Assembly: GCA_016190205.1 (NCBI GenBank)
Contig: JACPQZ010000076.1
Location: 4,632-68,631, forward strand
DNA length: 64,000 nucleotides
Source: Candidatus Omnitrophota bacterium
Lineage (GTDB): Bacteria; Omnitrophota; JACPQZ01
Direction: 5' to 3'
Part shown: positions 8,194 through 61,561 of the stretch, one piece after another
How positions within the stretch are numbered: the first letter of the stretch is position 1
Layout of the letters: each line of letters starts with the position of its first letter
Position numbers and translations under genes: made by a program
Notes under the pieces: generated by a model
The model's input: the letters and a program-made list of their open reading frames with translations, nothing else
Told to the model about the DNA's origin: nothing
The model's database searches: none

Positions 8194-8361
8194 CTCCTTT
8201 TTTAGCTATGAGCTTTCAGCTTTCAGCCGACAGCTGATCGCTCCTTACCTATTAATTGTATTGTGAAAACTGATGCTGGCACTTCATTATACCAAAGCCC
8301 GTATCTTTTTCTATGATATAGTGCTACAATAACGACTCAACCAACTATGGCATAACGAGTA

Positions 8362-23792: not shown

Positions 23793-24281
23793 TCAATTTT
23801 GGTCTTTAATCTTCTCTTGAATCCTGCGCCTGGCGCGCTTATTAAACTCGGAAAAGGCCATGTCCATCTGCCGGTCTGAGATGACCACCCAACGTACCTT
23901 CCGGCTCCCGGCATAACGTTCAAACTCGCTCAACGTTTGGGCATCGGTCGGATTGACAGTCGCAGCCGTTAATGACCACTCATCCTGAAAGAGGGGTAAG
24001 CATCTCTTTTCAACCGCCAGCGTCGGATTCACCTTCTGGACCACATCCCAGTCTATTTGATCGAAAACTAAATTGAGATACGGGAGCTCGAATTTTTCCG
24101 ATAGTGCCTGGGCCAAATCGCTGTCTGAAATGATACTTCTCTTGAGGAGAATTTGACCTAAAAACTCGTGGGTTCTTTGCTGCTCCGCCAGCGCCGAAAT
24201 AAGCTGGATTTCATTGATCAATCCCCGATCACGCAGAATTTCCCCGATCTGCTTTTTATTTTTCTTTTGTTCAACAGTCAT
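23793..24281 (-). CDS. Standalone MshEN (T2SSE_N) domain protein, putative c-di-GMP receptor
   Basis: The N-terminus KQIGEILRDRGLINEIQLISALAEQQ fits the 24-residue MshEN motif RLGxxLLxxGLIxxxQLxxALxxQ. A second degenerate copy follows (FLGQILLKRSIISDSDLAQALSEK). Confidence 0.6.
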   Translation of the reverse strand: MTVEQKKNKKQIGEILRDRGLINEIQLISALAEQQRTHEFLGQILLKRSIISDSDLAQALSEKFELPYLNLVFDQIDWDVVQKVNPTLAVEKRCLPLFQDEWSLTAATVNPTDAQTLSEFERYAGSRKVRWVVISDRQMDMAFSEFNKRARRRIQEKIKDQN

Positions 24282-24412
24282 GGGGGGTCCTTTCGGGAGA
24301 CTTTATTATCTATTTTATTGCTTCATCAACTTTTCATTCGGTACCATCATTCGGTACCAGGTACCGGATAGGGTTTAAACTGGGTTTCACTGTCGTGCCA
24401 GGCACCGAAACT

Positions 24413-24943
24413 TCATCCAATATCCAACAGGTTCTTATAGCGCTTTAGAAATTGGCGGTCCTTGGGCCGACCGGCAATCTCTTTTGAGCGCAAAAGTTTT
24501 TCCAACCGACCCACCTTCACAGGTATCTGGTCTACCGTAAAAGTTGCTGCATCCTTGGCTAAATCCGAGAAGGGATAGCCTGACACCTTGAGCAATAATT
24601 CAATCATGACGCCATCCGGGGTGGTTGCTACAAGAGTGCGCTGCTCTTTGACGAGCCGCGCGAGACTGGCTGCCTCTAACTTTCCCTGCGCTGTGCCAAG
24701 GGAAAAACCCAGCGCCTCAAGATTTACAACCGCCTTTTTTACATTCGCCAGAGTGGGATCCAGAAATATATCATAATCCATCGTTGCAAACATTTCGGAA
24801 GGATTACGGGCGTAGTAATTAATGCCGGACATTCCCACCACCACATAACGCACGCCCTTGCGATTAAATTCATCCACCACCCTCTGGTACGGGTCTCCCC
24901 CCTCAATCTTATTTACCATACGGTCACGAACGCTTCTTGCCAT
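24413..24943 (-). CDS. Pol-beta-superfamily nucleotidyltransferase-fold protein (AbiEii/DUF6036-like toxin candidate)
   Basis: Carries the G-[GS]...D-x-D motif (VVGMSGINYYARNPSEMFATMDYDIF) and a C-terminal GRPKD segment. It overlaps the upstream HTH gene by about 20 nt. A paralog lies at 32024..32485. Confidence 0.5.
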   Translation of the reverse strand: MARSVRDRMVNKIEGGDPYQRVVDEFNRKGVRYVVVGMSGINYYARNPSEMFATMDYDIFLDPTLANVKKAVVNLEALGFSLGTAQGKLEAASLARLVKEQRTLVATTPDGVMIELLLKVSGYPFSDLAKDAATFTVDQIPVKVGRLEKLLRSKEIAGRPKDRQFLKRYKNLLDIG

Positions 24944-25268
24944 AGTGACGCTGCCATGCGAGCAAGGTCCTGTGAACCCAGGTCTTCTCCGCCCCGTCCG
25001 GGCTATCCAGATCCCGTGCGCGGACCCTGCCTAACAGCTCGGGTTGCTTAGAGAGGGAGCCTGCCTCAGCGGGCACGTTCTCTAACAAGTCGGAAGGACT
25101 TACTCCCAGAAAGGCGGCGAGTTTGGCCAAGGCGTGGAGCGAAACTGACCGCTTGCCCGAGTCCATCGCTGAGACGTTCGAACGGTAGAGCCCCAGGCTC
25201 CTGGCCACCTGTGAAGCGGTCCAGCCTCTTTCCCGGGCCACCTGCGTAATACGGGTTCGGATTGGCAT
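24924..25268 (-). CDS. XRE-family helix-turn-helix transcriptional regulator (antitoxin candidate)
   Basis: HTH segment ITQVARERGWTASQVARSLGLYRSNVSAMDSGKRSVSLHALAKLAAFLG. The probable start is the internal ATG at 25268. Confidence 0.65.
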   Translation of the reverse strand: MPIRTRITQVARERGWTASQVARSLGLYRSNVSAMDSGKRSVSLHALAKLAAFLGVSPSDLLENVPAEAGSLSKQPELLGRVRARDLDSPDGAEKTWVHRTLLAWQRHYGKKRS

Positions 25269-25302
25269 CTCTGTAATGTTATCATATACTGATAACAAAA
25301 GC

Positions 25303-25461
25303 AACTCATCTTATTTCACCTCATTCGGAGAAATGAGGACGGTCTTGCCGTTTTTCCATATCGCCAGCGGCCGGCCTGTTTTCTTATGCCGCTTAACCAC
25401 CTCCCGAACCGCTTTTTTCAGAGCCGCTTCAGCTTTATCCTGCAAAGACATTCTTTTTTTC
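25303..25461 (-). CDS. Small ORF (51 aa) immediately downstream of the zeta-toxin gene; possible partner protein
   Basis: Minus-strand ATG at 25461 gives MKKRMSLQDKAEAALKKAVREVVKRHKKTGRPLAIWKNGKTVLISPNEVK. It starts 3 nt after the zeta stop. It is not in the ORF track because it is under 60 aa. Confidence 0.3.
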
Positions 25462-25463
25462 AT

Positions 25464-26042
25464 TTACCGTCTCGCACTTCTTTGAACCATCGCAAATAAA
25501 TCATCGTTCATTATTTCTCTGTGACCGTTTCGTTTTTTCGCGATCAATACCGGCTTCGACTTGGAATTATCAAACAACATCCAGGAATCGAGCAATGGCT
25601 CATACAGGTTGGAAAAATTATCGAGGCCGCGAGTGAATCTTCTGCGCACGTCTTCCGCAGGCACATGATGGCCGCCTTCCGCCACCCGGTCTTTAATACG
25701 TGCGATCGCCAGTTCCGCGCTCGGAATCCAGAGAAAGAAAAGATGAACCGTATAGCCTTTCTTTTTTAGATCAGTGAGTAGAGTTGCGTAGGATTTACCG
25801 GATAAAGTCGTCTCAAATGCAAAAACAACGCCGCGCCTGGCGTATTCATGGATCTCATGAAGAACGAGCTTACCGGCTTTGATCGCCGCGGCGCGAGGCC
25901 CAAAGGGGGCCAGTCCTTGAGCGATGAGGTCTGCATTTACAAAATTCGGGCAATTCACATAATCCGGTAAGAACAGCCTCGCAAAGGTCGTCTTACCCGA
26001 TCCATTGGGTCCCGCAATAATGTAAACCGCTTTATGCTTCAT
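25464..26042 (-). CDS. Zeta-toxin family P-loop kinase (AAA-like)
   Basis: Walker A motif IIAGPNGSGKTT and zeta-toxin family architecture in 192 aa. Confidence 0.75.
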   Translation of the reverse strand: MKHKAVYIIAGPNGSGKTTFARLFLPDYVNCPNFVNADLIAQGLAPFGPRAAAIKAGKLVLHEIHEYARRGVVFAFETTLSGKSYATLLTDLKKKGYTVHLFFLWIPSAELAIARIKDRVAEGGHHVPAEDVRRRFTRGLDNFSNLYEPLLDSWMLFDNSKSKPVLIAKKRNGHREIMNDDLFAMVQRSARR

Positions 26043-26077
26043 AGTCGGCCTGTTCAGCCTTAGTGAACGGAGTCATG

Positions 26078-26107
26078 TCTTGCAAAATAATATGTGATAT
26101 TGCAAGA
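26078..26107. promoter_or_regulatory. Perfect 8-bp inverted repeat (TCTTGCAA-N14-TTGCAAGA) in the zeta-toxin promoter region; putative operator
   Basis: The sequence tcttgcaaaataatatgtgatattgcaaga lies 36 bp upstream of the zeta-toxin start codon. Confidence 0.45.
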
Positions 26108-26116
26108 CCTGACCCT

Positions 26117-26878
26117 TCACGCGAACTCACGTTTCCTGAAATGGATTCCCGTATTGTCCGTAGGCCTCAACTCGTGTTTGATCCCCCGCCTGAGCATAAA
26201 CTCATCCACCGCTTTCTTACAGCCCTTCCAATAGCAGTAATCGTCGATCACCACGTAGCCATCTGGAACCACTTGATCGTAGAGTTCCTCCAGACAAATT
26301 TTAATTGATTCATAGTAATCGCCGTCCAAGTGGAGCAATGCAATGTCACCCATTGCTTTCTTATGCGAGGGGATAGTTTCATGAAACCAACCCTTGACGA
26401 AATGACCACGGCCCGCCGGAAACCTCAATGTTTTGTATAAAAGGCCTTTGGCGATCGTTTCCGGAGCGGATAATGCCCCTTTAGGAAACGTTTCGCCACT
26501 GGCTGTTTCATCCAACGCAGAAGCGTCCGGTAAGCCCTGCCATGAGTCGAAAAGCCACACGTGCCTTTTCGGATGCCGGTTGGCGACGGTATGAAGGACG
26601 GCGGCGCTCCCACCCCGGCACACGCCAAACTCCGCGAAACACCCTTTGACCCGGTCCCGGTTTAATATGGTTCCCAGCTCGAACAGCGTCAACAGTCGCG
26701 GGTACGTCAACATCGTATACGGTTTGATCTTCAAAAAAAGGTTGATCTTGCCCAGTTTCCAAAGATCTTTCTTTGGAACGCCCCGGATAAAATGCCACTC
26801 TGAATTCAGACGCGTCAGGAGCAGGTTTCTCTTCACCCATGCCTTGATAGGTTTAACCATCTGGGTGCGGACATTCAT
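26117..26878 (-). CDS. TylF/MycF-family SAM-dependent O-methyltransferase
   Basis: Contains CFAEFGVCRGGSA, LHLDGDYYESI and DGYVVIDDY, motifs of the macrocin-O-methyltransferase family. Confidence 0.7.
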   Translation of the reverse strand: MNVRTQMVKPIKAWVKRNLLLTRLNSEWHFIRGVPKKDLWKLGKINLFLKIKPYTMLTYPRLLTLFELGTILNRDRVKGCFAEFGVCRGGSAAVLHTVANRHPKRHVWLFDSWQGLPDASALDETASGETFPKGALSAPETIAKGLLYKTLRFPAGRGHFVKGWFHETIPSHKKAMGDIALLHLDGDYYESIKICLEELYDQVVPDGYVVIDDYCYWKGCKKAVDEFMLRRGIKHELRPTDNTGIHFRKREFA

Positions 26879-27004
26879 AACTCATCTTTCGGTACCAGGT
26901 ACAAAAGTGCCACTTATATACTGATAACAAAAGCAACTCATCGCGATTTGGCGCCGCAGTCCGTACAATGACATCGAACCTGGTACCTATAGGTAAAAGT
27001 CATC

Positions 27005-27703
27005 TCAAGCCATATCAAACAATAGTAATTCCGCGTCACTAAGGGCGGCGATCGTTAAAAGCTTTTCCCCGCTGACTGCGGCGCCGTCGCTCTCCTTAAA
27101 CGAGACTCCATTGACTTGAACCGAGCCGCGGGCCGCCTGTATCCAGGCGTGACGGTACATGTCTATGGCATATTCCACCTTTTTGCCTTTTTCGAGGGAT
27201 GAGATATAGAGACTGGCATCCTGATGGATTTTTAGGGCGCCTGCGGACGGCCGGCCGGCCGCGGCAAGGCACAACCGGTTTTTTCGCAGCTCGGGCTTGA
27301 AAGCACGCTGCTCATAACCAGGCTTGAGCCCATTTTTCTCCGGCAAGATCCAAATTTGCAGTAAATGCACGGGGTTCGTCCGGGACGGGTTGAACTCACT
27401 GTGAGTCACGCCCGTTCCGGCACTCATGCGCTGTACTTCCCCGGGCCGGATGACTGCACCGCTCCCCATACTGTCCCTGTGTTCCAGCTCGCCTTCCAGG
27501 ATATAGGTTATGATCTCCATATCTCTGTGCCCGTGCGTGCCAAAACCCTTTCCGGGCTCAATCCGATCCTCATTGATGACCCGAAGGCACCTAAAACCCA
27601 TATGCTTGGGGTCATGATAATCAGCAAATGAGAAGGTGTGATAGGAATCCAGCCAACCGTGATTGGCATGACCCCGCTCACCGGCTTTTCTGATTTGAAT
27701 CAT
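27005..27703 (-). CDS. Pirin family protein
   Basis: Pirin N-terminal cupin motifs HGWLDSYHTFSF, GFGTHGHRDMEIITYILEG and THSEFN. Confidence 0.85.
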   Translation of the reverse strand: MIQIRKAGERGHANHGWLDSYHTFSFADYHDPKHMGFRCLRVINEDRIEPGKGFGTHGHRDMEIITYILEGELEHRDSMGSGAVIRPGEVQRMSAGTGVTHSEFNPSRTNPVHLLQIWILPEKNGLKPGYEQRAFKPELRKNRLCLAAAGRPSAGALKIHQDASLYISSLEKGKKVEYAIDMYRHAWIQAARGSVQVNGVSFKESDGAAVSGEKLLTIAALSDAELLLFDMA

Positions 27704-27752
27704 CGTTCATGCCTTTGAATATGCCGTTTTTACGGGCCGCTTTGCTTTCCAC

Positions 27753-28319
27753 TCATCGTAACCGCGTGAACGAAAACACGGCATCCGTATCCTTGGCCCC
27801 CTCCTTGTAACAATTCCAGGACTGGTTCATCTGACCACCCCCATCGGCCAGTGAGATCTCGAGACCATGCATGTGCTGCTCGTGGGCTACATCGATATCC
27901 GTGTCGGCGGCCAGTTGAAATTTCCAGTTTGTACCGGACGATTCGTTCAGCACCATGCGCGGCTGGTTGCCCAACATGCAGTAATGGGTCATTTCAAGCC
28001 TGCCCGCGCGGTCGTGATAGACACTTACCATCTCGCTTGGCGTCCCTACGCAAAATCGCTCCAGAAGAACAGAGCCTCCCGACGTAAGTTCATAGCGGAC
28101 CTTTACTTTTTCCTCTTTGCCGTCCTTGACAGATGTTCCTTCCCACTCGCCCACGAGCCCCTTCAGGCGCTCAAACTCTGCTGAGGAAGGAGGACGCGGC
28201 GGCATTTCCTCTTCCGCAGCCTTCGAAATAGCGCCCGAAAGCAAGGCGCTCAGAAATGATACAAGAATGATACGCGCAAACACGTTAACCTCCTTTACAT
28301 GCAGGTAACACTGTTTCAA
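27753..28319 (-). CDS. Secreted DUF1579-like protein
   Basis: Has a signal peptide and the segment GEWEGTSVKDGKEEKVKVRYELTSGGSVLLERF, consistent with DUF1579. Confidence 0.45.
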   Translation of the reverse strand: MKQCYLHVKEVNVFARIILVSFLSALLSGAISKAAEEEMPPRPPSSAEFERLKGLVGEWEGTSVKDGKEEKVKVRYELTSGGSVLLERFCVGTPSEMVSVYHDRAGRLEMTHYCMLGNQPRMVLNESSGTNWKFQLAADTDIDVAHEQHMHGLEISLADGGGQMNQSWNCYKEGAKDTDAVFSFTRLR

Positions 28320-28384
28320 GCCATGTTAAACAATAAAAACTCTCTAACCTTCATACTGAGTGCCTATTGTTTCACTTTATGAGC

Positions 28385-28496
28385 TCTGCATTTACAAAAT
28401 TCGGGCAATTCACATAATCCGGTAAGAACAGTCTCGCAAAGGTCGTCTTACCCGATCCATTTGTCCCGCGATGATGTAAACCGCTTTGTGCTTCAT
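28385..28496 (-). pseudogene. Truncated, frameshifted duplicate of the 5-prime end of the zeta-toxin gene
   Basis: About 130 bp at 28385-28515 are about 95% identical to 25930-26060, which is the upstream region plus the first ~37 codons of the zeta gene. The copy has a 1-nt deletion and substitutions and no continuation. Confidence 0.65.
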
Positions 28497-28549
28497 AGTC
28501 GGCCTGTGCAGCCCTGGCGAACGCTAGGATATAACACCGCCATGCGGGC

Positions 28550-28585
28550 GGGGTCGACGGGCGCCATACGCGCTTTCGCGCTACT
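28550..28585. repeat. 36-nt direct repeat, copy 1 (GGGGTCGACGGGCGCCATACGCGCTTTCGCGCTACT); its first 12 nt equal the tRNA-Asp 3-prime end
   Basis: 34/36 identity with copy 2 at 29672..29707. The two copies flank the yjbQ-tag segment. Confidence 0.85.
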
Positions 28586-28606
28586 TACCAGGTGCAAAAG
28601 TGCCAC

Positions 28607-29020
28607 TTAATTTCCCATCACCTTGACCACGACGCGTTTTTTGCGCTTGCCGTCAAATTCGGCGTAAAAAATCTGCTCCCAGGGGCCTAGATCCAGCTTC
28701 CCCCCGGTAACAGGCAGGACCGCCTGATGGTGAACCAAGGTGCGTTTGAGATGGGCGTCGCCGTTGTCCTCTCCCGTGAGGTGGTGGCGGTAGTCCTCGC
28801 GGAAAGGCGCGAGCCGCTCTAAAAGCTCCCATAAATCCTCCCACAGCCCTTCCTCGTTATCGTTCACCCAAATCCCGGCAGTAATGTGCATGGCCGAGAC
28901 CAGGCACATTCCTTCCTGGACGCCGCTTTTTTTGACGATCCCCTCGAGCTTGTCCGTGATATTGACCAGATCCCTGCGCTTGGGGGTGTTAAACCAAAGG
29001 TATTCGGTGAGGGTGGTCAT
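28607..29020 (-). CDS. yjbQ: YjbQ/UPF0047 family protein (secondary thiamine-phosphate synthase-like)
   Basis: Reads [50 protein letters not shown]..., typical of UPF0047. Confidence 0.7.
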
Positions 29021-29022
29021 GA

Positions 29023-29616
29023 TTATGGGTGCTGCACTTCGCGGTGTCTGAAACAACTGACAAGGTGATCGTTCACCATGCCTGTCGCCTGCATGTGGGC
29101 ATAGCAGATGGTGGATCCTACGAACCGGAAGCCTTTCTCCTTAAGGGCATGGCTCAAGGCGTCGGACTCTGACGTTCGCGCGGGCAAGTCTTTTAGAGAC
29201 CTGCGCTTGTTCTGGATGGGCTTGCCGTCCACAAACCGCCATATAAAGGAAGAGAAACTCCTTTCCTCTTTTTGAATCTTGAGAAAAGCCCGAGCGTTTG
29301 TGATCGCCGCTTCGATCTTGAGACGGTTACGGATGATGCCAGTATTTTGAAGCAACCGGCTCACGTCACGCCTGCCATAGCGGGCTATTTTCTCGGCGTC
29401 GAACCCATGGAAAGCCTTGCGGTAATTTTCCCGCTTTTTAAGCACCGTGAGCCAGCTTAAACCCGCCTGTGCCCCTTCGAGCACTAAAAATTCAAACAAC
29501 TTGCCGTCGTCATACAAAGGCACTCCCCATTCCCGGTCGTGGTAAGCTCGCATGAGGGGATCGGATTCAGCCCATTCACAGCGGTGGTTGGCAGACATGT
29601 ATCGAAATGAAGCCAA
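29023..29616 (-). CDS. tag: DNA-3-methyladenine glycosylase I
   Basis: Contains [45 protein letters not shown], a close match to Tag. Confidence 0.85.
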
Positions 29617-29671
29617 TTATCCTTACCAGGTACAAGAGTGCCACGTCGAATTGACGACGGGAAATAATTAC

Positions 29672-29707
29672 GGGGTCGACGGGCGCCATACGCGCCTTTG
29701 CGCTACT
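29672..29707. repeat. 36-nt direct repeat, copy 2 (GGGGTCGACGGGCGCCATACGCGCCTTTGCGCTACT)
   Basis: See copy 1 at 28550..28585. Confidence 0.85.
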
Positions 29708-29757
29708 GGCACTTCCCTGGCGTGCCAGGCACCGAAGGCCGAAGAGAAGAAAAGAAA

Positions 29758-29979
29758 TTAAGCTGCCTTCAACCCCTGCAACGTTCTTTTCCGAAATCCT
29801 ATGATGGTCAACCCTACCACTTCTTTTTTCTTTTGGTCGTAACGGACGATGACACCCTCTCCGATATCCACACCTACTGCGGGACGTGGTTTGCCGACGG
29901 AAATATAAAGGACATCGGCTTCCTCGTCGTATTCCCAATTCAATGAGCGTTTTCCCTCAAGAATTCTCAGCGCTTCCAT
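29758..29979 (-). CDS. DUF2283 family small protein (antitoxin-like)
   Basis: 73 aa with YDEEADVLYISV and VVGLTII segments, the DUF2283 pattern. It overlaps the upstream gene. Confidence 0.55.
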   Translation of the reverse strand: MEALRILEGKRSLNWEYDEEADVLYISVGKPRPAVGVDIGEGVIVRYDQKKKEVVGLTIIGFRKRTLQGLKAA

Positions 29980-30278
29980 ATTACCTCCCTCCTCTTCGAA
30001 AAGGAGCCCGCAAAATATGCTGTTAGAACAAATCCTTCTTGTCCGCCAGCCTCTTTGTAGGCAACCACCAAGTGCTTTTGCGTAAGGGGCGTTTTTGAAT
30101 AGAATCGCACGGCCAGCAACTCGCCGAAATCACCTTCCTGGATTAAATCAGGGTCTGAAATGGTTTCCACGACCCTATCCCTCTGACCCTCCATTTCCGG
30201 ATGGCGCCTCAGAATGTGCTCCCACCGCTCGCGCGTTAAGCGGATTGGGATCCCTTTCTTAGAATGAATAATAATCAT
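29967..30278 (-). CDS. Small protein paired with DUF2283 (DUF4258-like toxin candidate)
   Basis: 103-aa ORF overlapping the DUF2283 gene by 13 nt. It has the genomic arrangement typical of DUF4258/DUF2283 pairs. The family assignment is tentative. Confidence 0.4.
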   Translation of the reverse strand: MIIIHSKKGIPIRLTRERWEHILRRHPEMEGQRDRVVETISDPDLIQEGDFGELLAVRFYSKTPLTQKHLVVAYKEAGGQEGFVLTAYFAGSFSKRREVIWKR

Positions 30279-30430
30279 CTATCTAACTGAACCGGTTTAT
30301 TTCATCCACTTCCCAATGCGCGTATTTCGTATGCGCTCCAAGTGTCCCTGGCGTACCAGGCACCGACAATTTAATTTTCAGTTTTAGTGCCAGTTAAAAT
30401 GGAATTGTCGTGCGCTCCTGGCTCCAGAGT

Positions 30431-31258
30431 TTAAACTCCGGGGTTGTTATCAGTGCTTGGTACCGTGTTGCCGGGTACTGTATTTTTCCTTTCCGAAGAC
30501 CGGCGGTAAGGTTTTAATTCCTCATCACTTTGGTAATCTCTAATGATTTCGCGAACCCGTTGGCTTATTGAAGAGGAATCAGTTATAACTGGACCACGAG
30601 CGATTAACTTCCGCTCTTCTGAGAATGTGTTTCCGCTTTTATCTTTATAACAAACCGAAATAATTAGAAAAGGCGGCCTCTCAGGCTCAAATATACTCCC
30701 TTTCTCGGAAATTGGAATCTCACGTTCTTCTTCAGGAGCTATTATATAGTGGAATTTTGGTTGGCGCCCTTTCTTATAAATTTGGGAAATATGCTCACCA
30801 TCAACAATGTATGGGCGAGGAGCACTAAGATCAAAATATTCATGTACCCCTGTGATAGGATTAACAATCACGACCTCGGAATCTAACGCCTCGCCGGTAC
30901 CGATATTTTTTAGAGTTACTTTTCCAACGCCGTTTTCAATATCGACAATTTCATAGCGGCTTACAACTAATCGAGGCTCATATGAATCAGCGCGCTTGGA
31001 TGCAGTCACAACGAGGAGAATCGTAGAAATAAGTAAAGAGAGCAGTGCTGTTAACGTTGCTGGTTGCACATTTCCAAACCTGTCTCTCTCCCAGGAGAAA
31101 AAAATTATTATGCACGCAATCAGATAAATCCAGATCCAAGTTTTGATAGGAAGAGTATTCACAATAAGTGACGGTAGGAAAAAATAACCTGAAATGAAAA
31201 ATGGCAATGGTAGGAGTAATGATGCAACTAAGTGCCGCAATAAGGTCATTATTCCCAT
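30431..31258 (-). CDS. Hypothetical membrane protein in an AT-rich (foreign-looking) segment
   Basis: 275-aa ORF with N-terminal transmembrane helices. Local GC is visibly lower than its surroundings. Tandem GTTAACACA repeats lie in its upstream region. Confidence 0.45.
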   Translation of the reverse strand: MGIMTLLRHLVASLLLPLPFFISGYFFLPSLIVNTLPIKTWIWIYLIACIIIFFSWERDRFGNVQPATLTALLSLLISTILLVVTASKRADSYEPRLVVSRYEIVDIENGVGKVTLKNIGTGEALDSEVVIVNPITGVHEYFDLSAPRPYIVDGEHISQIYKKGRQPKFHYIIAPEEEREIPISEKGSIFEPERPPFLIISVCYKDKSGNTFSEERKLIARGPVITDSSSISQRVREIIRDYQSDEELKPYRRSSERKNTVPGNTVPSTDNNPGV

Positions 31259-31711
31259 ACCGACATTCTTGATAGGTGCGCTATTGTTAACACAATGTTA
31301 ACACAGGTCTATTTTATATAAGCAGGGAGTTATGGCTTAATCATCATTACCACTTCTGTATATTTAAAGTATGCATAACGGAGTCGACGGGATTTGGCGG
31401 TTTGGGCTCGCCACTTAGTCGATTACTCCTTCGGTTATCGGTGTTCGGTGCTCGGTTATCGCAAGAAAAAGAAATATTATGAGCCTTCAGCCGTCGGCTA
31501 TCTGCCTTGGGCTTTTGCTGATGGCTGATGGCTGATAGCCAACAGAGTTTGCGAGCACCGATAACCGATCCACGATCACCGAATCAAATGCTCGCCCAAA
31601 CTCGGCCACTCGCCGCGCCAAGGAAGGCGGTGCTCCCATATAGGTCGCACCGCATGTGTTGGGGGGCGCGGCTCACTTCAAATCCCGTCGACCTTTTGAC
31701 GGAAAAGAAGA

Positions 31712-31787
31712 CGGGGTCGACGGGATTTGAACCCGCGGTCTCCTGATCGACAGTCAGGCGCTTTAAGCCGGACTAAGCTACGACCCC
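31712..31787 (-). tRNA. tRNA-Asp (anticodon GTC)
   Basis: Reverse complement reads GGGGTCGTAGCTTAGTCCGGCTTAAAGCGCCTGACTGTCGATCAGGAGACCGCGGGTTCAAATCCCGTCGACCCCG. It folds as a cloverleaf with anticodon loop CTGTCGA. Confidence 0.85.
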
Positions 31788-31920
31788 TTTAAAACCGTGA
31801 CTCGTCGCTCGTGAATCGTGGTTTTAGCAAGAAACACGCTTGTCGTGAGTGAAGCGTGATGTGTGGTGAAACCGTCACTTCACTCACCCCTCACCACACA
31901 TGACAATCTTTACTCGCCAA

Positions 31921-31994
31921 GAGTAGTCATTGGGCGAAACAGGACTCGAACCTGTAACCCCTCGGATGTAAACCGAGTGCTCTGACCGATTGAG
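31921..31994 (-). tRNA. tRNA-Val (anticodon TAC)
   Basis: Reverse complement reads GGGCGAATAGCTCAATCGGTCAGAGCACTCGGTTTACATCCGAGGGGTTACAGGTTCGAGTCCTGTTTCGCCCA. Confidence 0.85.
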
Positions 31995-32023
31995 CTATTC
32001 GCCCGAAAGCGTATATGATGTAG

Positions 32024-32485
32024 TCACGAATAACCTGATTTTCTTTTCTTCACGATTCGCGCCAGATCCAGTTTGTCCTGCGGGCGTCCGCTTGCCTTTT
32101 TAGACAGTATGAGCTCATCGAGGCCCATGATGTTGATGGCGATTTTCCCATACCGGCTATGTCTCCGGTGTTTCCATGCCTCAATTGCAGAGACCCCCGG
32201 CACCTTAATCAAAATGTCCACTCTTACCGGCGCAATACCTATTTGAAGTATTACGGATTGATCCTGAAAATCACCCGGGCGCACCCCTTTCAGAGGAGCA
32301 CCATAGAACTTCAGGGCCTTGTAGACGCTGCGTGGATCGTTCAGTTCTGCCGGGATCCAGATGTCCAGATCTTTCGTAAATCGGGGCTCGGAATAAAATA
32401 TAACGGCGTGAGCGCCGATAACAAGATACTTGATCTTATGCGCGTTTAAGGCGCTGAACAGATCTTCGTAATCGGAGCTCGGCAA
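32024..32485 (-). CDS. Pol-beta-superfamily nucleotidyltransferase-fold protein, paralog of 24413..24943
   Basis: Contains YLVIGAHAVIFYSEPRFTKDLDIWI (G...D-x-D motif) and a C-terminal SGRPQDKLDL segment. It has the same architecture as the first nucleotidyltransferase gene. Confidence 0.5.
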   Translation of the reverse strand: MPSSDYEDLFSALNAHKIKYLVIGAHAVIFYSEPRFTKDLDIWIPAELNDPRSVYKALKFYGAPLKGVRPGDFQDQSVILQIGIAPVRVDILIKVPGVSAIEAWKHRRHSRYGKIAINIMGLDELILSKKASGRPQDKLDLARIVKKRKSGYS

Positions 32486-32633
32486 CTGGCTTCCCCCGCA
32501 TCTTCAGAAACGTACTGACCATAGCCCAAGCGGCTTCAAAACGCGCCGCCGCACCCGCACGCCGCCAAAACCACCGGTCAAACGCATCGGCTTCTTTAAA
32601 AGATTTCGACTTGTGAATCCATGTCTTGCTCAT
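32436..32633 (-). CDS. Small ORF overlapping the 5-prime end of the second nucleotidyltransferase gene (possible antitoxin partner)
   Basis: 65-aa ORF with a 50-nt overlap onto the downstream nucleotidyltransferase gene. No recognisable domain. Confidence 0.25.
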   Translation of the reverse strand: MSKTWIHKSKSFKEADAFDRWFWRRAGAAARFEAAWAMVSTFLKMRGKPVAELRLRRSVQRLKRA

Positions 32634-32728
32634 CGCATTCCTACCCCCTTGCCCACCTAAACTATGCGAACCTTAGCACATAGCCTCGAAGCCCCCCGAA
32701 GCATCATGCGAAGGGGAGCGAAGAAGTG

Positions 32729-32803
32729 CGTCCCCAACGGGATTTGAACCCGTGTTGACGGCTCGAAAGGCCGTTGTCCTAGACCGGGCTAGACGATGGG
32801 GAC
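32729..32803 (-). tRNA. tRNA-Glu (anticodon TTC)
   Basis: Reverse complement reads GTCCCCATCGTCTAGCCCGGTCTAGGACAACGGCCTTTCGAGCCGTCAACACGGGTTCAAATCCCGTTGGGGACG. Confidence 0.85.
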
Positions 32804-32959
32804 AGTAATCAGAACCAAATCCGGCCTCGTGAAGCGTCGATCGTGAAGACTATCTCACAACCCTGTAATAGAACCTCGCGCCGCTGCCCCTCGTAGCCGC
32901 ATCTTCCTGATACGAGATACGCTTCACGAGATACGAGATACGAAAATGTGGACAGCGTG

Positions 32960-47754: not shown

Positions 47755-48036
47755 GCTACTTCCTTTCCTTTTTTATTGCCTTGCGAAGCCGCCACCGCGA
47801 ACCTTAACCCTGTGGATCACCTTGGAGAAACTCACATCCGGGGCAAAACGGAGGAATTTCCAGAATTTCTGCAACACGTAATGTTAACACAGGTTACGGC
47901 AACAAGTCAACTTAAAAATTCCTGACACAAGTGGCGCGAAGGTTGCCTATGAACCTGTTACACAATAAGTTACACAAACGAACCGCCCGCATGTGAAGGT
48001 CCCCCTCTCGCGGGGCGCTCTTGAGTCCCAGATAAG

Positions 48037-48052
48037 GCAATCACCATGCCAA
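48037..48052 (-). promoter_or_regulatory. Candidate sigma-54 promoter (TGGCAT-N5-TTGCC) upstream of glnA
   Basis: The minus strand reads TGGCATGGTGATTGCC, with the GG/GC spacing of sigma-54 promoters. It lies about 280 nt upstream of the glnA start and 3-prime of the sigma-54 activator gene. Confidence 0.35.
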
Positions 48053-48103: not shown

Positions 48104-49676
48104 TCAGATGGAACTGACAATTTTGTATTTTTTGGCCTTGTAACCTAAAATGCGTTCCGTGATGCCCAGCATCTTCGCCGCGCGGCTTTGATTTCCCCGG
48201 CTCGTGTTTAAGGCTTCCTGGATGAGCCGGGCCTCCAAAGCCTTTACAGAATCCGTCAGACTCAACCGGCCCGCGTTCCCCTCATGAAACCGTTCCTCGG
48301 CATAGTGCGGCACAACCTTATGCCTTATGTTGGAGGGTAAATCCCTCCTGCGGACGACGTGACCCTCCGCCATCACCACCGCCCGCTCCATGCAGTTTTC
48401 GAGCTCTCTGACGTTTCCAGGCCAGGGGTAGGTGATGAGGACATCCATTGCGTCCTGGGCCGGGCGCTCTACCGCCTTCCCATGTTCCTTCCCGGAGCGG
48501 CTGATAAAGTAATCGACGAGCTCCGGGATATCCTCCCTGCGCTCCCTTAAAGGCGGAAGGTAGATGGTGATGACGTTCAGGCGGTAGTAGAGATCCTCTC
48601 GGAACCGTTTCTCCCGCACCTCCTGATCGAGGGGACGGTTGGTGGCCGCTATGATGCGCACGTCCACCTTGATGGTCTCGGTCCCTCCCACCCGCTCAAA
48701 TTCGCGCTCCTGCAGCACCCGCAGCATCTTCACTTGGGCGGCCAGCGTGAGATCCCCTACCTCGTCCAGAAAAAGGGTCCCCCCATGGGCGAGTTCGAAA
48801 CGACCGGGTTTTCTGGCGAGGGCCCCCGTGAACGCCCCCTTTTCGTAACCGAAGAGTTCGCTCTCGAGGAGGGTCTCGGGGATCGACGCTGCGCTTATTC
48901 TGACAAAGGGTCCGTCCGAGCGCGGGCTCATGTAATGGAGGGCGCGTGCAATAAGCTCCTTTCCCGTTCCGCTCTCTCCTAAAAGCAGCACGGTAGCCTT
49001 GGAGCGGGCGCATTGATGGACGACGCGAAAGACGTCCTGCATGGCGCGGCTGGACCCTATGATGTTCTCGACATGGTAGCGGGTCTTGAGCTGCCGGCGG
49101 AGATCTGTATTTTCTTCTTCCAACCTGACGTGCTCCGTACGGACCTGCTGCCTCAAACGGACCGCCTGGGCGATCATAGAGGCGATGGTCGCAAGGAGGC
49201 GAACGTCCTCCTGCAGAGACACGGGCTGCTCAAAGAGCCTGTCCACGCTTAGGGCCCCAATCGTCTTACCGGCATATTTGATCGGAACACAGATGAAGGC
49301 GATGGTCTGCCGGGAGAGATCTCCGCGGGACCGCGTCCGGTTTAGGAAAAGGGGTTCCTTCCCGATGTTGGGGATTGCGATCGGTTCGCCCGCCTCCACC
49401 ACCTTGCCCGTGATCCCCTCGCCCAGCTTATACCGGCCCCGCCGCATTTGCCGCCGGTCCATGCCCTTGGCCGCCTCGATCATGATCTTCTGGGTCTGGG
49501 GGTCCAAGAGCGTGAGTGTTCCGCGCTCCATGCCCATTTCCCGGGCGAGGATATCCAGCACCGAGCGCAGGACATCGAGCTCAAGCGAGGAGGCCAGGGC
49601 CTGGCTGATTGAATGCAGGACATTGAGCTCTTTAAGCCCCTGGCGTAACTCGCCGTTCTTAAGATGATCGGTCATT
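48104..49676 (-). CDS. Sigma-54-dependent transcriptional activator with an N-terminal GAF domain (NifA/NtrC-like)
   Basis: Sigma-54 AAA module ([21 protein letters not shown]) and a C-terminal Fis-type HTH. The start is set at MTDHLKNG (ATG 49676). The upstream in-frame extension translates the repeat element. Confidence 0.85.
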
Positions 49677-49691
49677 TTAACCTTAAATAAC

Positions 49692-50005
49692 TCTGTCCGT
49701 GATTCGTGTTTCGTGATTCGTGAAACGTAGTTGACGACTTGAGTAACCAGAAACCAGCAACCAGATACCAGAAGATTCCAGAGACCAGATACCAGAGTGA
49801 TACGATAAAATTCGAAATACGAAACTCGAAGCACGAAGCAAATTCGAATGACCGAAATTCAAAACTCGAAAACGGTTGTTTTGAATTTCTGATTTCGAAT
49901 TTCTAACTTGCTTCTAATTTCGATCTTCGAATTTCGTATTTTTTCTGGTTACTGGTATCTGGTATCTGGTTTCTTTTTTTCACGATTCACGATCAACGAT
50001 CCACG
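49692..50005. repeat. About 310-bp composite palindrome built from three families of tandem hexamer repeats arranged A-B-C|C-prime-B-prime-A-prime
   Basis: Left arm: (CGTGATT/TCGTGAA)n, then (AACCAG/ATACCAG)n, then (TTCGAAA/ACTCGAA)n. The centre is near 49875. The right arm holds the reverse-complement families (TTCGAATTT..., CTGGTATCTGG..., CACGATTCACGATC...). Confidence 0.85.
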
Positions 50006-50008
50006 AAC

Positions 50009-50824
50009 CTACACTGCGACAATGCACACTCCCCGGGTGTCGGCTTCACAAAGCACCCGCTCACGTTCCAGGATGAGGGTCTCACCCGCCTCAATGGCGA
50101 GGACGCCTGTTTGGGCGTCGGCGAGCGCCTGAACTGTCTTTAGACCGATACAGGGAACATCAAATCGCACATCCTGTTTCGCCTTGCTTACCTTGACGAT
50201 AACGATCCCCGGGCCCGCCACCTGAAAGGCGCGGCGGATCATGTCATCCGTTCCCTCCATGGCCTCCACCGCGACCACGGCCTTGGCCTTTACAGCCACT
50301 GCCTGTCCGACATCCAGGGCAGAGACCTTTTTGGCCAACTCGAACCCAAAGCGGATGTCCGCTTCCTGCTCCGGTGATGGGTTTCTCCGCGTCAAAACCC
50401 CCCTCGATGGGATGAGATCGCTCAAGTACGTCTTTGAGCTCAAGAGGGTAAGGCCCTTCCTGGCCAGATATTTGGCGACAGCCTTGAGCAGGGTGTCCGC
50501 CCGCTTATCCGGCGCCGTAGCCAAGATGAAGGCGAGGGCCGGATCGGGTTTAAAACCTGAAAAGAGTTTTTTATGTTTTATCTGCCCGGCCATCACAACA
50601 TCCGTGACCCCCTCGGACTTCAAATATTCTGTCAGGCGTTCGAGATCCGTGACCTCGATCCAGTGTACCTTGTCTGCGAGCTCCTCGATGCCGCTCTCGG
50701 TCTCACCCCGCACAGCGACCGCCACCACCCGATGGCCGCGCTCCCGCGCCTTGCCCGCAAAAATCAGCGGGTATTGGCCGTTTCCGGCGATCAAACCGAT
50801 CGTTTTAGGAGCTACTTTTTGCAT
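50009..50824 (-). CDS. lpxI: UDP-2,3-diacylglucosamine diphosphatase LpxI (DUF1009)
   Basis: LpxI family similarity (GLIAGNGQYPLIFAGKARERGHRVVAVAV...). It sits in lipid A gene context next to lpxA. Confidence 0.75.
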   Translation of the reverse strand: MQKVAPKTIGLIAGNGQYPLIFAGKARERGHRVVAVAVRGETESGIEELADKVHWIEVTDLERLTEYLKSEGVTDVVMAGQIKHKKLFSGFKPDPALAFILATAPDKRADTLLKAVAKYLARKGLTLLSSKTYLSDLIPSRGVLTRRNPSPEQEADIRFGFELAKKVSALDVGQAVAVKAKAVVAVEAMEGTDDMIRRAFQVAGPGIVIVKVSKAKQDVRFDVPCIGLKTVQALADAQTGVLAIEAGETLILERERVLCEADTRGVCIVAV

Positions 50825-50910
50825 GCGTGTGTGATTCGGGATCCGGGAAGCGGGAACAGGGAACCGCCACCGCTTCCCGCTTCCCGTTTCCCGGTTCCCG
50901 AACCGTCGTT

Positions 50911-51711: not shown

Positions 51712-53028
51712 TTAGGCATCCACCAGGCTGAACATGAGTCTCGCCTCCGCCACCACCTTATTCCCGACCTTGGCCACACCCTCGGTCAGCGTGGTGCGAG
51801 ACTTAATCTTCAAGACGTTCACTTCCAGGATAAGCTCATCCCCCGGGAGTACCGTCCTCCTGAACTTCGCCCGCTCGATGCTCATGAAATACGCAATCTT
51901 CTTTAAGTTCTCCTGGCGCGAGAGCATGAGGATCCCGCTCACCTGCGCCAAGGCCTCTACGATCAAGACGCCCGGCATGACCGGATGGCCCGGAAAATGG
52001 CCGCCGAAATAGGCTTCGTCCGCTAGCACATGCTTGACCCCAACTGCCCGCTTGTTGGGAATAAACTCAACCACCTCGTCGACAAAGAGAAAAGGTTGGC
52101 GATGAGGAATAATGCGCTCGATCTCTGTCTGTCCCATCACTGTTCCTTCAGAGAGAGGTTCCTGTACCACACTGGCGACCCCGGCGGCGCCGTCGCGCAC
52201 GGCCTGCCGTTTGATTCGCTGGATGAGCGCAATATTGAGAGAGTGTCCGCTCCTCACGGCGATGACATGACCCTTTAGATGCATCCCCAGGAGATACAAA
52301 TCCCCGATGAGATCCAGGATTTTATGCCGCACAAATTCATCCTGAAAGCGCAGCTCGTTGCGGATCACCCCCTCCGGGCCCACCACCAGGGTATTGTCGA
52401 AATCAGCCCCCTTCCCTAGGCCCTTTTCCCTTAAAAGCTGTCCTTCCGACTCCGTGCAGAACGTGCGGGCGGGCGCGATCTGGTTCACGAAGACGTCGTC
52501 CTTCAAGGTAAAGCTCGCGAATTGCGATTTCATTTCGGGGTGATCGAACATATAGCTCACCTTGAACGCATCATGCGGCAGAACGACAATGCTGGCATCT
52601 TGTTCCTGGATGTAAATCGGCTCTCGAACGGCGTAGACCTTGCGAGGCGCCTCCTGCTCCTGGTAACCGGCCTTGGCAAGCACCTGGGTAAATCCGAGCG
52701 CGCTTCCGTCCAGCCCGGGGAGTTCCTCCCCGTCTATCTCAATGATGATATTGTCAATCCGCAGTCCCACCAGGCACGCCATGAGATGCTCGATGGTGTG
52801 CACCTCATAGGAGTTCACGCCCACGGAAGAGCGGCGCGGCCTCTTATTGAGGTCGATCACATGGTAGATTTCGGCGGGGATGGAAGGTTTTTCAGGAAGG
52901 TCAGACCGGACGAAACGAACGCCCGACTGCGGGGGGGCTGGCTTGAAAACGCAGTTGACCGTCTTGCCTGTGTGCAGGCCGACCCCGGAGAGCCTAGCCG
53001 GCTTTTTTATTGTCCGCTGAGACTCCAC
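51712..53028 (-). CDS. lpxC: Bifunctional UDP-3-O-acyl-GlcNAc deacetylase / 3-hydroxyacyl-ACP dehydratase (LpxC-FabZ fusion)
   Basis: N-terminal LpxC ([19 protein letters not shown]...) and C-terminal FabZ ([11 protein letters not shown]...[20 protein letters not shown]). The likely start is GTG 53028, since the ORF track start at 53166 would overlap lpxD by 170 nt. Confidence 0.85.
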
Positions 53029-54058
53029 CGAGCTTTCTCTCCAGACGTGCCACCTTGTCTTCCAAGGTGGAAAAAGACTTGAACATCTCGGGAAGCTTGG
53101 CCATGCAGGCGAAGATCCTCTTGGCCCGGTTAAAGGGCTTGGCCGGCTGGCCAAGGACACAGGCATTGTCGGGAACGGATTTGGTCACCCCGCTCTGTGC
53201 TGCGATGGTGACATTATCTCCGATGGTGATATGCCCCACGATGCCCGCCTGACCCGCCATCACCACGCCGTTTCCGACCGTAGTGCTCCCGCTGATACCG
53301 CACTGCGCGACGATGATGGAGTGCTCTCCAATCGTCACGTTATGCGCGATTTGAACCAGATTGTCAATCTTCGTCCCCCTCCCGATAAAGGTGGTGCCGA
53401 AACGGGCGCGATCAATCGTCACGTTGGAACCGATCTCCACGTCGTCGGAGAGAACCACGTTGCCGATTTGGGGGATCTTGTGATGCACGCCCTTGACCGT
53501 AGCAAAACCGAATCCGTCGCTCCCGATCACAGAGCCGGAATGAATGATGACGCGCGCCCCGATCTCGACATATTCCCGGATCGAGACGTTCGGATAAATC
53601 ACCGTTGCCTTACCGATCTTGGTGTGGTGGCCCACGTACACCCCCGCATACAGGATGACGTCATCGGCAATCTCGGCATAGTCATCCACTACCACGTAGG
53701 GCTGCATGGCTACGTTCTTCCCCAGCTTGACATGCTGGCCCAGAACTGCCGTCGAATGAATGCCCTTAGGCGTCACGGTCTCATTGGGAGCCAAGAGCGT
53801 GACGATGCGCGCAAAGGCAAGTGATGGATTTTCCGCGCGGATCAGGGAATGGTTGGGGATCGGCTCGAGATCTTCAGAAACAATGATGGCGGAGGCCTGC
53901 GTCGTATCGGCCAGGGGGACGTATTTGGGATTGGCCAGGAACGTGATATCCCCTTCCGAGGCTTCTTTAATACCGCTCACGCCCGTAATCACCGTATTGG
54001 GATCGCCGTCCACGCGGCCCCCGACGATTCGGGCGAGCTCCGAGAGGGTCTTTTTCAC
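52994..54058 (-). CDS. lpxD: UDP-3-O-acylglucosamine N-acyltransferase
   Basis: LpxD-like N-terminus ([42 protein letters not shown]) and hexapeptide repeats. Confidence 0.9.
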
Positions 54059-58377: not shown

Positions 58378-58464
58378 AGTAACCTCTATCAGCTTTCAGC
58401 TTTCAGCTATCAGCTATTAGCTATCAGCTTTCAGCTAACGGCTGAAGGCTGAAGGCTGACTTCG

Positions 58465-58908: not shown

Positions 58909-58920
58909 AACAAACCTCTA

Positions 58921-59043
58921 CGATCGTTCTTCGTTCATCGTTCTTCGTTCTTCGTTCTTCGTTCGACAACCCGGGTATTTGACATGGATTTCATTTTTTT
59001 GCTGTTACGAAGCACGATGCACGATGAACGAAGCACGTCGTGC
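58921..59043. repeat. Dyad-symmetric hexamer-array element (CTTCGTT/CATCGTT)n ... (CGAAGCA/CGATGCA)n between rplI and rpsR
   Basis: The tandem array cgttcttcgttcatcgttcttcgttcttcgttcttcgttcg is mirrored by cgaagcacgatgcacgatgaacgaagcacg around a ~45-nt core. Confidence 0.8.
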
Positions 59044-61438: not shown

Positions 61439-61561
61439 ACTGCCCCTCTATGACTTTCGCGGGATTCGCGTTTCGTGATTCGGGAATCGGGAACAGGGAA
61501 TCAAAACCTTTTTTCAGCGGTACCCGCTTCCCGGTTCCCTGTTCCCGTGTCCCGGACACGG

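Follow-up and report, generated by a model that had tools for sequence, protein, structure and literature searches.

The lpxI-activator junction

The stretch analysed here, referred to throughout as the window, is 64 kb of DNA from a Candidatus Omnitrophota bacterium (contig JACPQZ010000076.1). Within it, the minus-strand genes lpxI and a sigma-54-interacting transcriptional activator are separated by a gap of 333 nt (49676-50008). Nearly the whole of this gap is spanned by a composite imperfect palindrome of 314 nt (49695-50008), built from six tandem arrays in the mirrored order A-B-C|C'-B'-A'. The genes and the parts of the palindrome are as follows.

48104-49675, minus strand: activator gene (GAF, sigma-54-interaction AAA+ and HTH_8 domains; 523 aa), the downstream cistron, followed by glnA
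49698-49725, plus strand: array A, 4 heptamers (CGTGATT, CGTGTTT, CGTGATT, CGTGAAA) with the core TCGTG and 2 variable bases (TCGTGAN)
49726-49741: A-B spacer, 16 nt of non-repeat sequence, a small side stem in the predicted fold
49742-49796, plus strand: array B, ~8 units of [AT]ACCAG[AC] (ACCAGAN), including one irregular 10-nt unit (AGAAGATTCC)
49804-49871, plus strand: array C, ~9 degenerate units (TTCGAAA, TACGAAA, CTCGAAG, CACGAAG)
49872-49876: centre and apical loop (ACGGT), with perfect 12-nt arms on either side (49854-49865 and 49878-49889)
49877-49945, plus strand: array C', ~10 units (TTTCGAA, AATTTCT, CTTCGAA), the inverted partner of C
49942-49976, plus strand: array B', ~4.5 units of T[TA][TC]CTGG, the inverted partner of B
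49979-50008, plus strand: array A', 4 units (TTCACGA, TTCACGA, TCAACGA, TCCACGA), the inverted partner of A, abutting the lpxI stop codon (50009-50011)
50009-50824, minus strand: lpxI (UDP-2,3-diacylglucosamine diphosphatase; Pfam LpxI_N and LpxI_C), the upstream cistron

A preliminary description of this DNA had correctly placed a palindrome in the lpxI-activator spacer and had recognised the mirrored order of three repeat families, but its bounds (49692-50005) have to be shifted to 49695-50008 and the arrays are not made of hexamers. Tandem Repeats Finder gives all six a period of 7, with 3.1-9.4 copies each, our own period scan concurs, and the units that had been written out are themselves mostly 7-mers. 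The arrays are delimited by the program as CGTGATT (49698-49723), AACCAGA (49745-49796) and AAATTCG/ACGAAGC (49808-49840) in the first half and as TTTCGAA (49879-49941), TCTGGTA (49944-49974) and CACGATC (49981-50006) in the second. With at least three head-to-tail 7-nt copies, they belong to the heptamer simple sequence repeats (STRR-like). Unit numbers differ about twofold between array B and its partner B' (~8 vs ~4.5). The palindrome has a G+C content of 38.9%, compared with 56.5% for the window, and there are no G3 tracts within 49695-50008, leaving it without G-quadruplex potential.

The longest open reading frame (ORF) for the activator (48104-49834, minus strand, 576 aa, GTG start) reads through arrays A and B and into C, bearing out an earlier remark that part of the repeat is read as low-complexity protein in the uncorrected ORF. 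Homology to an activator orthologue of 70% identity starts at residue 61, 7 residues past the ATG at 49675, and the N-termini of three orthologues align with this ATG (49675-49673). The activator ORF has therefore been called too long and the conserved start is ATG 49675. The palindrome is non-coding. Its outermost pair joins 50008, the base adjoining the lpxI stop codon, to 49695, which leaves 19 nt between the stem and the ATG of the activator. An AAGG Shine-Dalgarno-like motif (49684-49687), 8 nt upstream of the ATG, lies outside the hairpin.

Pairing and folding of the palindrome

The halves of the palindrome are inverted heptamer-array pairs of the type described in Xanthomonas, in which the same unit lies on opposite strands and a stem-loop can form. 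Complementarity between the arms is 77% for A/A', 81-91% for B/B' and 76% for C/C', and both B/B' and C/C' can pair in several registers 7 nt apart. The predicted RNA fold of the sense (minus) strand has a free energy of −130.5 kcal/mol, against −74.8 ± 4.8 for 100 dinucleotide shuffles (z = −11.5), and the DNA fold reaches −73.5 against −34.4 for shuffles (z = −10.9). The very long imperfect RNA hairpin proposed in the preliminary description is upheld by these values, and both folds are far better than the shuffled controls with which it had asked for them to be compared.

Some 120 pairs make up the predicted stem, whose helices are 2-12 bp long, in most cases 6-9, and which is interrupted about every 7 nt. 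In the predicted folds each unit pairs with the other arm through its conserved core of 5-6 nt, while its 1-2 variable bases mostly stay unpaired, and this turns the stem into a chain of short helices. Besides its complementarity to A', array A (49698-49720) matches a stretch within array C (49813-49835) with 83% complementarity. Alternative pairings are possible because this stretch has units of the A' family (CACGAAG).

Other heptamer-repeat loci in the window

In a scan of the 64 kb for tandem periods, 16 arrays had a period of 7, whereas no other period from 4 to 14 gave more than one and shuffles gave 0.2. The period-7 arrays are without exception intergenic, and they fall into eight loci.

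8204-8227: smaller array in another gap, AGCTTTC x3
31431-31585: nested arrays, upstream of a tRNA cluster
32909-32943: smaller array in another gap, GATACGA x5
49695-50008: the composite palindrome, lpxI-activator junction
50833-50900: CGGGAAN / NTTCCCG hairpin, lpxA-lpxI junction
58386-58459: CTNTCAG / GGCTGAA hairpin, rplI-dnaB junction; its base abuts the AGAGG Shine-Dalgarno sequence of dnaB
58924-59037: TCGTTCN / ACGANGN hairpin (58919-59042), rpsR-rplI junction; its base abuts the AGAGG Shine-Dalgarno sequence of rplI
61465-61554: CGGGAAN / NTTCCCG hairpin, prs-L25 junction

Five of the loci lie between co-directional genes of conserved operons (lpxA-lpxI, lpxI-activator, rpsR-rplI, rplI-dnaB and prs-L25) and at least six of the eight contain inverted array pairs. 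Predicted folds of the stronger strand range from −37 to −130 kcal/mol over all eight loci and from −37 to −74 kcal/mol over the seven besides the palindrome. The locus at 31431-31585 is a second nested case, in which TCGGTNN arms enclose CAGCC/GCTGATG arms. It had been suggested that repeat structures of such size are unusual between housekeeping genes and that this one is a special feature of the activator leader. Neither suggestion is supported: heptamer-array hairpins are present at no fewer than seven further intergenic sites in the 64 kb, among them the lpxA-lpxI, rpsR-rplI, rplI-dnaB and prs-L25 junctions.

Within the arrays, 5-6 unit positions are fixed and 1-2 are variable, and at least six different cores are used in the window. 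Several families recur. TCGTGAN units are found at 49698 and 61465, ACGAAGN/TCGTTCN units at 49819 and 58924-59037, CAGCTNT/GGCTGAN units at three loci (8204, 31487-31539 and 58386) and CGGGAAN units at 50833 and 61479, the last two having the variant CGGGAACAGGGAA in common. The palindrome is built on the same plan as the seven other loci and has several unit families in common with them. There is no near-identical copy of the 314-nt palindrome in the window, and the elements have neither common termini nor any common sequence beyond the heptamer units.

Some further features of the CGGGAAN hairpins may be recorded here. The variant CGGGAACAGGGAA is base-pair compensated (TTCCCTGTTCCCG) only at 61523-61546. 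Each 5' arm of 50833-50900 and 61479-61554 has four G3 tracts, making a G-quadruplex possible. The L25 ORF (60675-61559) is likewise over-extended, through the 61465-61554 arrays, and its probable start is ATG 61436.

Comparison with other Omnitrophota

Beyond an NCBI 'Candidatus Omnitrophica' entry of 100% identity, the closest LpxI relative in the protein database is 67% identical, and a scan of genome contigs with LpxI yielded only distant relatives of 41-44% identity. In the three nearest relatives (L006, L009 and L011) the activator gene starts 10-12 nt after lpxI or overlaps it. The comparison shows that ~320 nt were inserted into, or grew within, a junction that in these relatives is 10-12 nt or an overlap.

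The 50-62 kb part of the window is syntenic with distant Omnitrophota over L25-pth-rpsF-ssb-rpsR-rplI-dnaB-bamA-ompH-lpxD-lpxC/fabZ-lpxA-lpxI. The junctions in this syntenic block are 3-43 nt in those relatives and 86-333 nt here; three of them compare as follows.

rpsR-rplI junction: 12-21 nt in relatives, 138 nt in the window
rplI-dnaB junction: 21-41 nt in relatives, 87 nt in the window
lpxA-lpxI junction: 3-43 nt in relatives, 86 nt in the window

In ~90 kb of other Omnitrophota loci, only 0-1 period-7 arrays were found. Because the junctions of syntenic relatives are short and nearly without period-7 arrays, we read the hairpins as a lineage-specific burst into formerly tight junctions. 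The preliminary description had held that a short spacer in relatives together with assembly problems such as low-complexity collapse, or else a poor fold, would speak against the structure. The spacer in relatives is indeed short or replaced by an overlap; there is neither a poor fold nor an artefact of collapse.

Heptamer arrays in other organisms and known repeat classes

Two of the three distant lpxI loci fetched happened to have heptamer palindromes directly upstream of lpxI. In a member of the Vicinamibacteria (L003, 5785-5998) there are GAATGAA / TTCATTC arrays with a predicted fold of −104.9 kcal/mol (z = −12), and in a member of the Planctomycetaceae (L005, 1436-1595) there is a composite of the order AAAATGA - GTAATTG - ACGAATT - CATTTAA. 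These palindromes occupy fabZ/lpxA-lpxI and lpxD-lpxI junctions, respectively. Together with the two lpxI-flanking elements of the window they make an association of heptamer palindromes with lpxI possible but unproven.

A scan of metagenomes for (ACCAGNN)x4 matched at least 120 loci. Among the matches listed there are 291 period-7 arrays, compared with 12-45 for other periods. An inverted partner accompanies about 8% of the ACCAG arrays, and at least 25 inverted heptamer pairs of many families are present, again among the matches listed. Nested composites occur in two of these loci, L111 (GAAGAGT - AAACCAG / CTGGTTT - TTCACTC) and L049.

According to the summaries given in PMC4679880 and PMC4692102, in many bacteria no other long simple repeats are as abundant as heptamers, for which an origin by polymerase slippage has been proposed. 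One close parallel to the palindrome is in Xanthomonas, where ~185 GGGAATC arrays are known and 70-75 cases are inverted pairs with the capacity to form a stem-loop (Rehm et al. 2015, PMC4692102). In X. campestris and X. axonopodis most of these arrays are transcribed, their length varies among related strains and no function has been assigned to them (PMC4692102). Like the palindrome, they are intergenic tandem heptamers, commonly in two convergent arrays that can form a stem-loop. In contrast, the palindrome has no G-tracts and nests three unit families, and the window uses at least six cores where Xanthomonas uses one. The CGGGAAN unit of 50833-50900 and 61479-61554 is a rotation of the Xanthomonas GGGAATC, but we draw no conclusion from the match since by a rough estimate it is not significant given the number of comparisons made.

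The tandem heptanucleotide repeats of cyanobacteria (STRR; Mazel et al. 1990, as cited in PMC4692102) comprise several families per genome. Those of Nostoc have been described more recently (bioRxiv 10.1101/2022.06.06.494920), with few inverted pairs reported (PMC4692102). As with the arrays of the window, they form several families and are tandem, intergenic, lineage-specific, abundant and without a defined role; they are often near start codons. They belong to another phylum, however, and are mainly direct arrays, nested multi-tier palindromes not being described in these sources (PMC4692102, bioRxiv 10.1101/2022.06.06.494920). The multicopy heptanucleotide elements of Geobacter metallireducens (GGACCGG x4 and MTYCTGA x5; Aklujkar et al. 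2009, PMC2700814) resemble the palindrome in being made of 4-5 tandem heptamers, but are short, single-family, conserved in sequence across copies and not nested. One class of them has been drawn as two-strand loops, and the authors of that study propose that the elements are regulator binding sites (PMC2700814). The TAACTGA repeats of marine Beggiatoaceae have a scattered phylogenetic distribution and a suggested translational role (MacGregor 2015, PMC4679880). They too are abundant intergenic heptamers, located just upstream of start codons; unlike the palindrome, they are of a single family, are nearly always direct (1/170 inverted) and are predicted to be unstructured as RNA. The REP, BIME and REPIN sequences of Proteobacteria are a conserved family of 20-40 nt mobilised by RAYT transposases (e.g. 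PMC3116915). They share with the window elements the accumulation of intergenic hairpins between co-directional operon genes and the composite clusters of inverted units, whereas the window elements have a 7-nt periodicity, no conserved element sequence and no RAYT seen in the window. In the literature searched, coverage of which is incomplete, multi-family nested palindromes were not found described, and none were found for Omnitrophota.

The palindrome does not match several established classes that were considered. A MITE would have terminal inverted repeats, a target-site duplication and near-identical copies; no duplication is visible at the junctions and there is no near-identical copy in the window. 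A REP, BIME or REPIN would have a conserved palindrome of 20-40 nt, and the elements have only heptamer cores in common. An intrinsic (Rho-independent) terminator is rejected because no U-run follows the stem (the sequence there is ACAGAGUUAUUUAAGG). The role of a sigma-54 upstream activator sequence is rejected on grounds of position, since the arrays stand in front of the activator's own gene rather than of a sigma-54 promoter.

Interpretation of the palindrome

Taken together, the data suggest that the palindrome is a non-coding, lineage-specific heptanucleotide-repeat element, one of a genome-wide population of 7-nt-array hairpins that colonises short junctions. We hold this interpretation with moderate confidence. 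The palindrome is an elaborate form of a known but poorly understood class of heptamer repeats, to which those of cyanobacteria, Xanthomonas and Geobacter also belong, with no new mechanism demonstrated, and it is no riboregulator dedicated to the activator.

Arrays of this kind would grow and shrink by replication slippage in units of 7 nt, and we infer that the unequal unit numbers of B and B' have this cause. The nested order A-B-C|C'-B'-A' could be built tier by tier through hairpin-mediated template switching or snap-back copying; alternatively, one hairpin might insert into the loop of another. New sites would be seeded by copies of existing elements, and the same cores would be present at different loci because elements had been copied between them.

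At the RNA level, the element is probably transcribed because the flanking genes are on the same strand and form an operon in relatives, and any read-through mRNA must include the palindrome because it lies on the sense strand of both genes. The transcript would zip up co-transcriptionally from the centre into a segmented hairpin of ~110 bp. This would break the translational coupling of lpxI and the activator and leave the activator ribosome-binding site free. REP-type intercistronic hairpins protect or process mRNA ends; those of malE-malF can reportedly protect upstream mRNA from 3' decay. The palindrome could similarly protect 3' or 5' ends or be a processing site. The best reading is that the intercistronic mRNA hairpin is a consequence of the repeat burst.

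Several points weigh against this interpretation. Growth of 314 nt from a 10-nt junction by slippage alone is unlikely, so a copy-in step is required, and the window yielded no enzyme for such a step. The interpretation does not explain why units of 7 nt are preferred or why so few cores are used. No intermediate stages of the palindrome were found, the nearest LpxI relative being only 67% identical; identity between the arms follows no clear inside-out or outside-in gradient. Co-transcription, the hairpin in vivo and an effect on mRNA stability are all inferred. Finally, over seven elements the G-U pairs are almost evenly divided between the sense (23) and antisense (21) strands, with no sense-strand excess and so no sign of selection at the RNA level.

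Alternative explanations

The alternative that survives best, although we regard it as unlikely, is that these are mobile non-autonomous elements of the REP/REPIN or MITE type, in which pre-formed hairpins are copied by an enzyme acting in trans from a gene elsewhere (e.g. a RAYT/IS200-like HUH transposase). Nested tiers would then arise by insertion into the loops of resident hairpins, and slippage would only alter copy number later. Such a history would account for the recurrence of unit families among loci, including the derived variant CGGGAACAGGGAA at both 50833 and 61479, for the presence of whole elements in junctions measuring only 3-43 nt in relatives and for the recurrence of nested composites, both at 31431-31585 and in other organisms (L111, L049). 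Yet no two elements are alike beyond the heptamer units, and the unit numbers of the arms are unequal. No target-site duplications or conserved termini were seen by eye at the flanks inspected, including in comparison with the empty site in L006, L009 and L011, and no transposase or RAYT was found among the ~50 ORFs of the 64-kb window scanned with Pfam.

A bolder form of the slippage and copying interpretation is that heptamer hairpins are self-propagating DNA, which seeds operon junctions with a small vocabulary of 5-nt cores, grows by slippage and hairpin-templated synthesis and serves as operon punctuation or is tolerated as such. We put this forward as a speculation that is distinctly unlikely to be right. 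If true, the hairpins would represent either a new kind of non-autonomous element or a mutational syndrome driven by polymerase or repair. They would have had independent origins in Omnitrophota, Acidobacteriota, Planctomycetota, Xanthomonas and cyanobacteria, and might explain the bacterial excess of heptamers.

It is improbable that the palindrome has instead been selected as part of the lpxI-activator mRNA, whether as an attenuator, a terminator, an RNase III processing site or a stabiliser, by which the amount of a nitrogen-related sigma-54 activator would be set independently of the lipid A operon. The hairpin is more stable by 11 kcal/mol in the sense than in the antisense orientation and has more G-U pairs (8 vs 3), the stem stops 19 nt before the ATG with the AAGG motif free, and an insulator could be useful given that the genes are coupled in relatives. 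However, the element is absent from all relatives and similar hairpins are present in unrelated operon junctions. The strand preference is not general either: the strand with the lower minimum free energy differs from element to element, and the near equality of G-U pairs on the two strands makes the symmetry of the hairpins look like a DNA-level property. A scan of the minus strand for intrinsic terminators made no call inside the element, the stem lacks a following U-run and a scan for sigma-70-like promoters found none within the element. With Rfam 15 at gathering thresholds only tRNAs pass in the window; in a permissive search the best matches were plant miRNA precursors at 39 bits, against thresholds of ~200, which are generic long hairpins.

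We think it very doubtful that the palindrome acts primarily as DNA, as a cruciform or as an array for a nucleoid or regulatory protein affecting supercoiling, replication or transcription of the neighbouring genes. Cores of 5 nt spaced at 7 bp would place three units on two helical turns, conservation follows the phase of the unit, the core being fixed and other positions variable, and the symmetry is strand-neutral, the DNA fold having a z of −10.9 and the central arms being perfect over 12 bp. On the other hand, six or more cores in one genome would call for either many binding specificities or none, no protein was identified as a candidate to bind them, there is no link between arrays and promoters and the break in the arms about every 7 bp disfavours cruciform extrusion.

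Lastly, an assembly artefact, whether a chimeric inverted join or the collapse or expansion of low-complexity reads, is scarcely credible. Two Logan assemblies from different runs contain an identical lpxI gene, an identical CGGGAAN hairpin in the lpxA-lpxI junction and an exact copy of the first 44 nt of the element. It is true that both contigs (L001, end 2817; L002, end 1027) stop at the same base, window position 49965, 44 nt into the element, and that no second full copy of the locus is on record, as judged by exact protein look-ups with the activator (three start choices) and glnA. There is no repeated 31-mer at the break point, and the break may be due to repeat-number polymorphism or to hairpin-related loss of coverage. 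Both the arms, which are imperfect and unequal in unit number, unlike artefactual hairpins, and the reproduction of the 44 nt by Logan speak against an artefact. Additionally, lpxI is followed on the contig by the gene that also comes after it in relatives, the activator, and the same architecture is found in assemblies from other studies and phyla.

Significance and additional observations

In the accounts cited, an excess of heptamers has been known since 1990 in cyanobacteria and since 2007 from genome surveys, and its origin and role are described as not understood. The window offers a natural experiment, in which a conserved housekeeping block has junctions of 3-43 nt in other Omnitrophota and repeat hairpins of ~70-314 nt here. 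This contrast with repeat-free syntenic relatives makes the question of why heptamers are favoured more tractable. It could be used to order or date the growth of the hairpins, to seek a co-occurring gene or repair defect and to gauge the effect of a 100-bp intercistronic hairpin. For annotation, the element may account for the short-read contig breaks and does account for the over-long activator ORF call.

In the gap between the activator gene and glnA, TGGCATGGTGATTGCC at 48036-48051 (minus strand) has the GG-N10-GC spacing of a sigma-54 promoter. Through this candidate promoter, glnA may be a target of the activator, the count of the pattern in the window being not above chance. The window also contains an lpxC-fabZ fusion gene (51712-53166; LpxC and FabA-like domains), which is kept in all Omnitrophota loci fetched.

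A stretch at ~24000-32900 has a lower G+C content (45-54% vs ~57%) and encodes a zeta-toxin-like kinase, a TylF-type methyltransferase, several ORFs without a Pfam match and three tRNA genes. This stretch may be an integrated island. Its repeats include a perfect 13-nt tandem duplication (24334-24359) and two copies of TGTTAACACAA (31285-31305).

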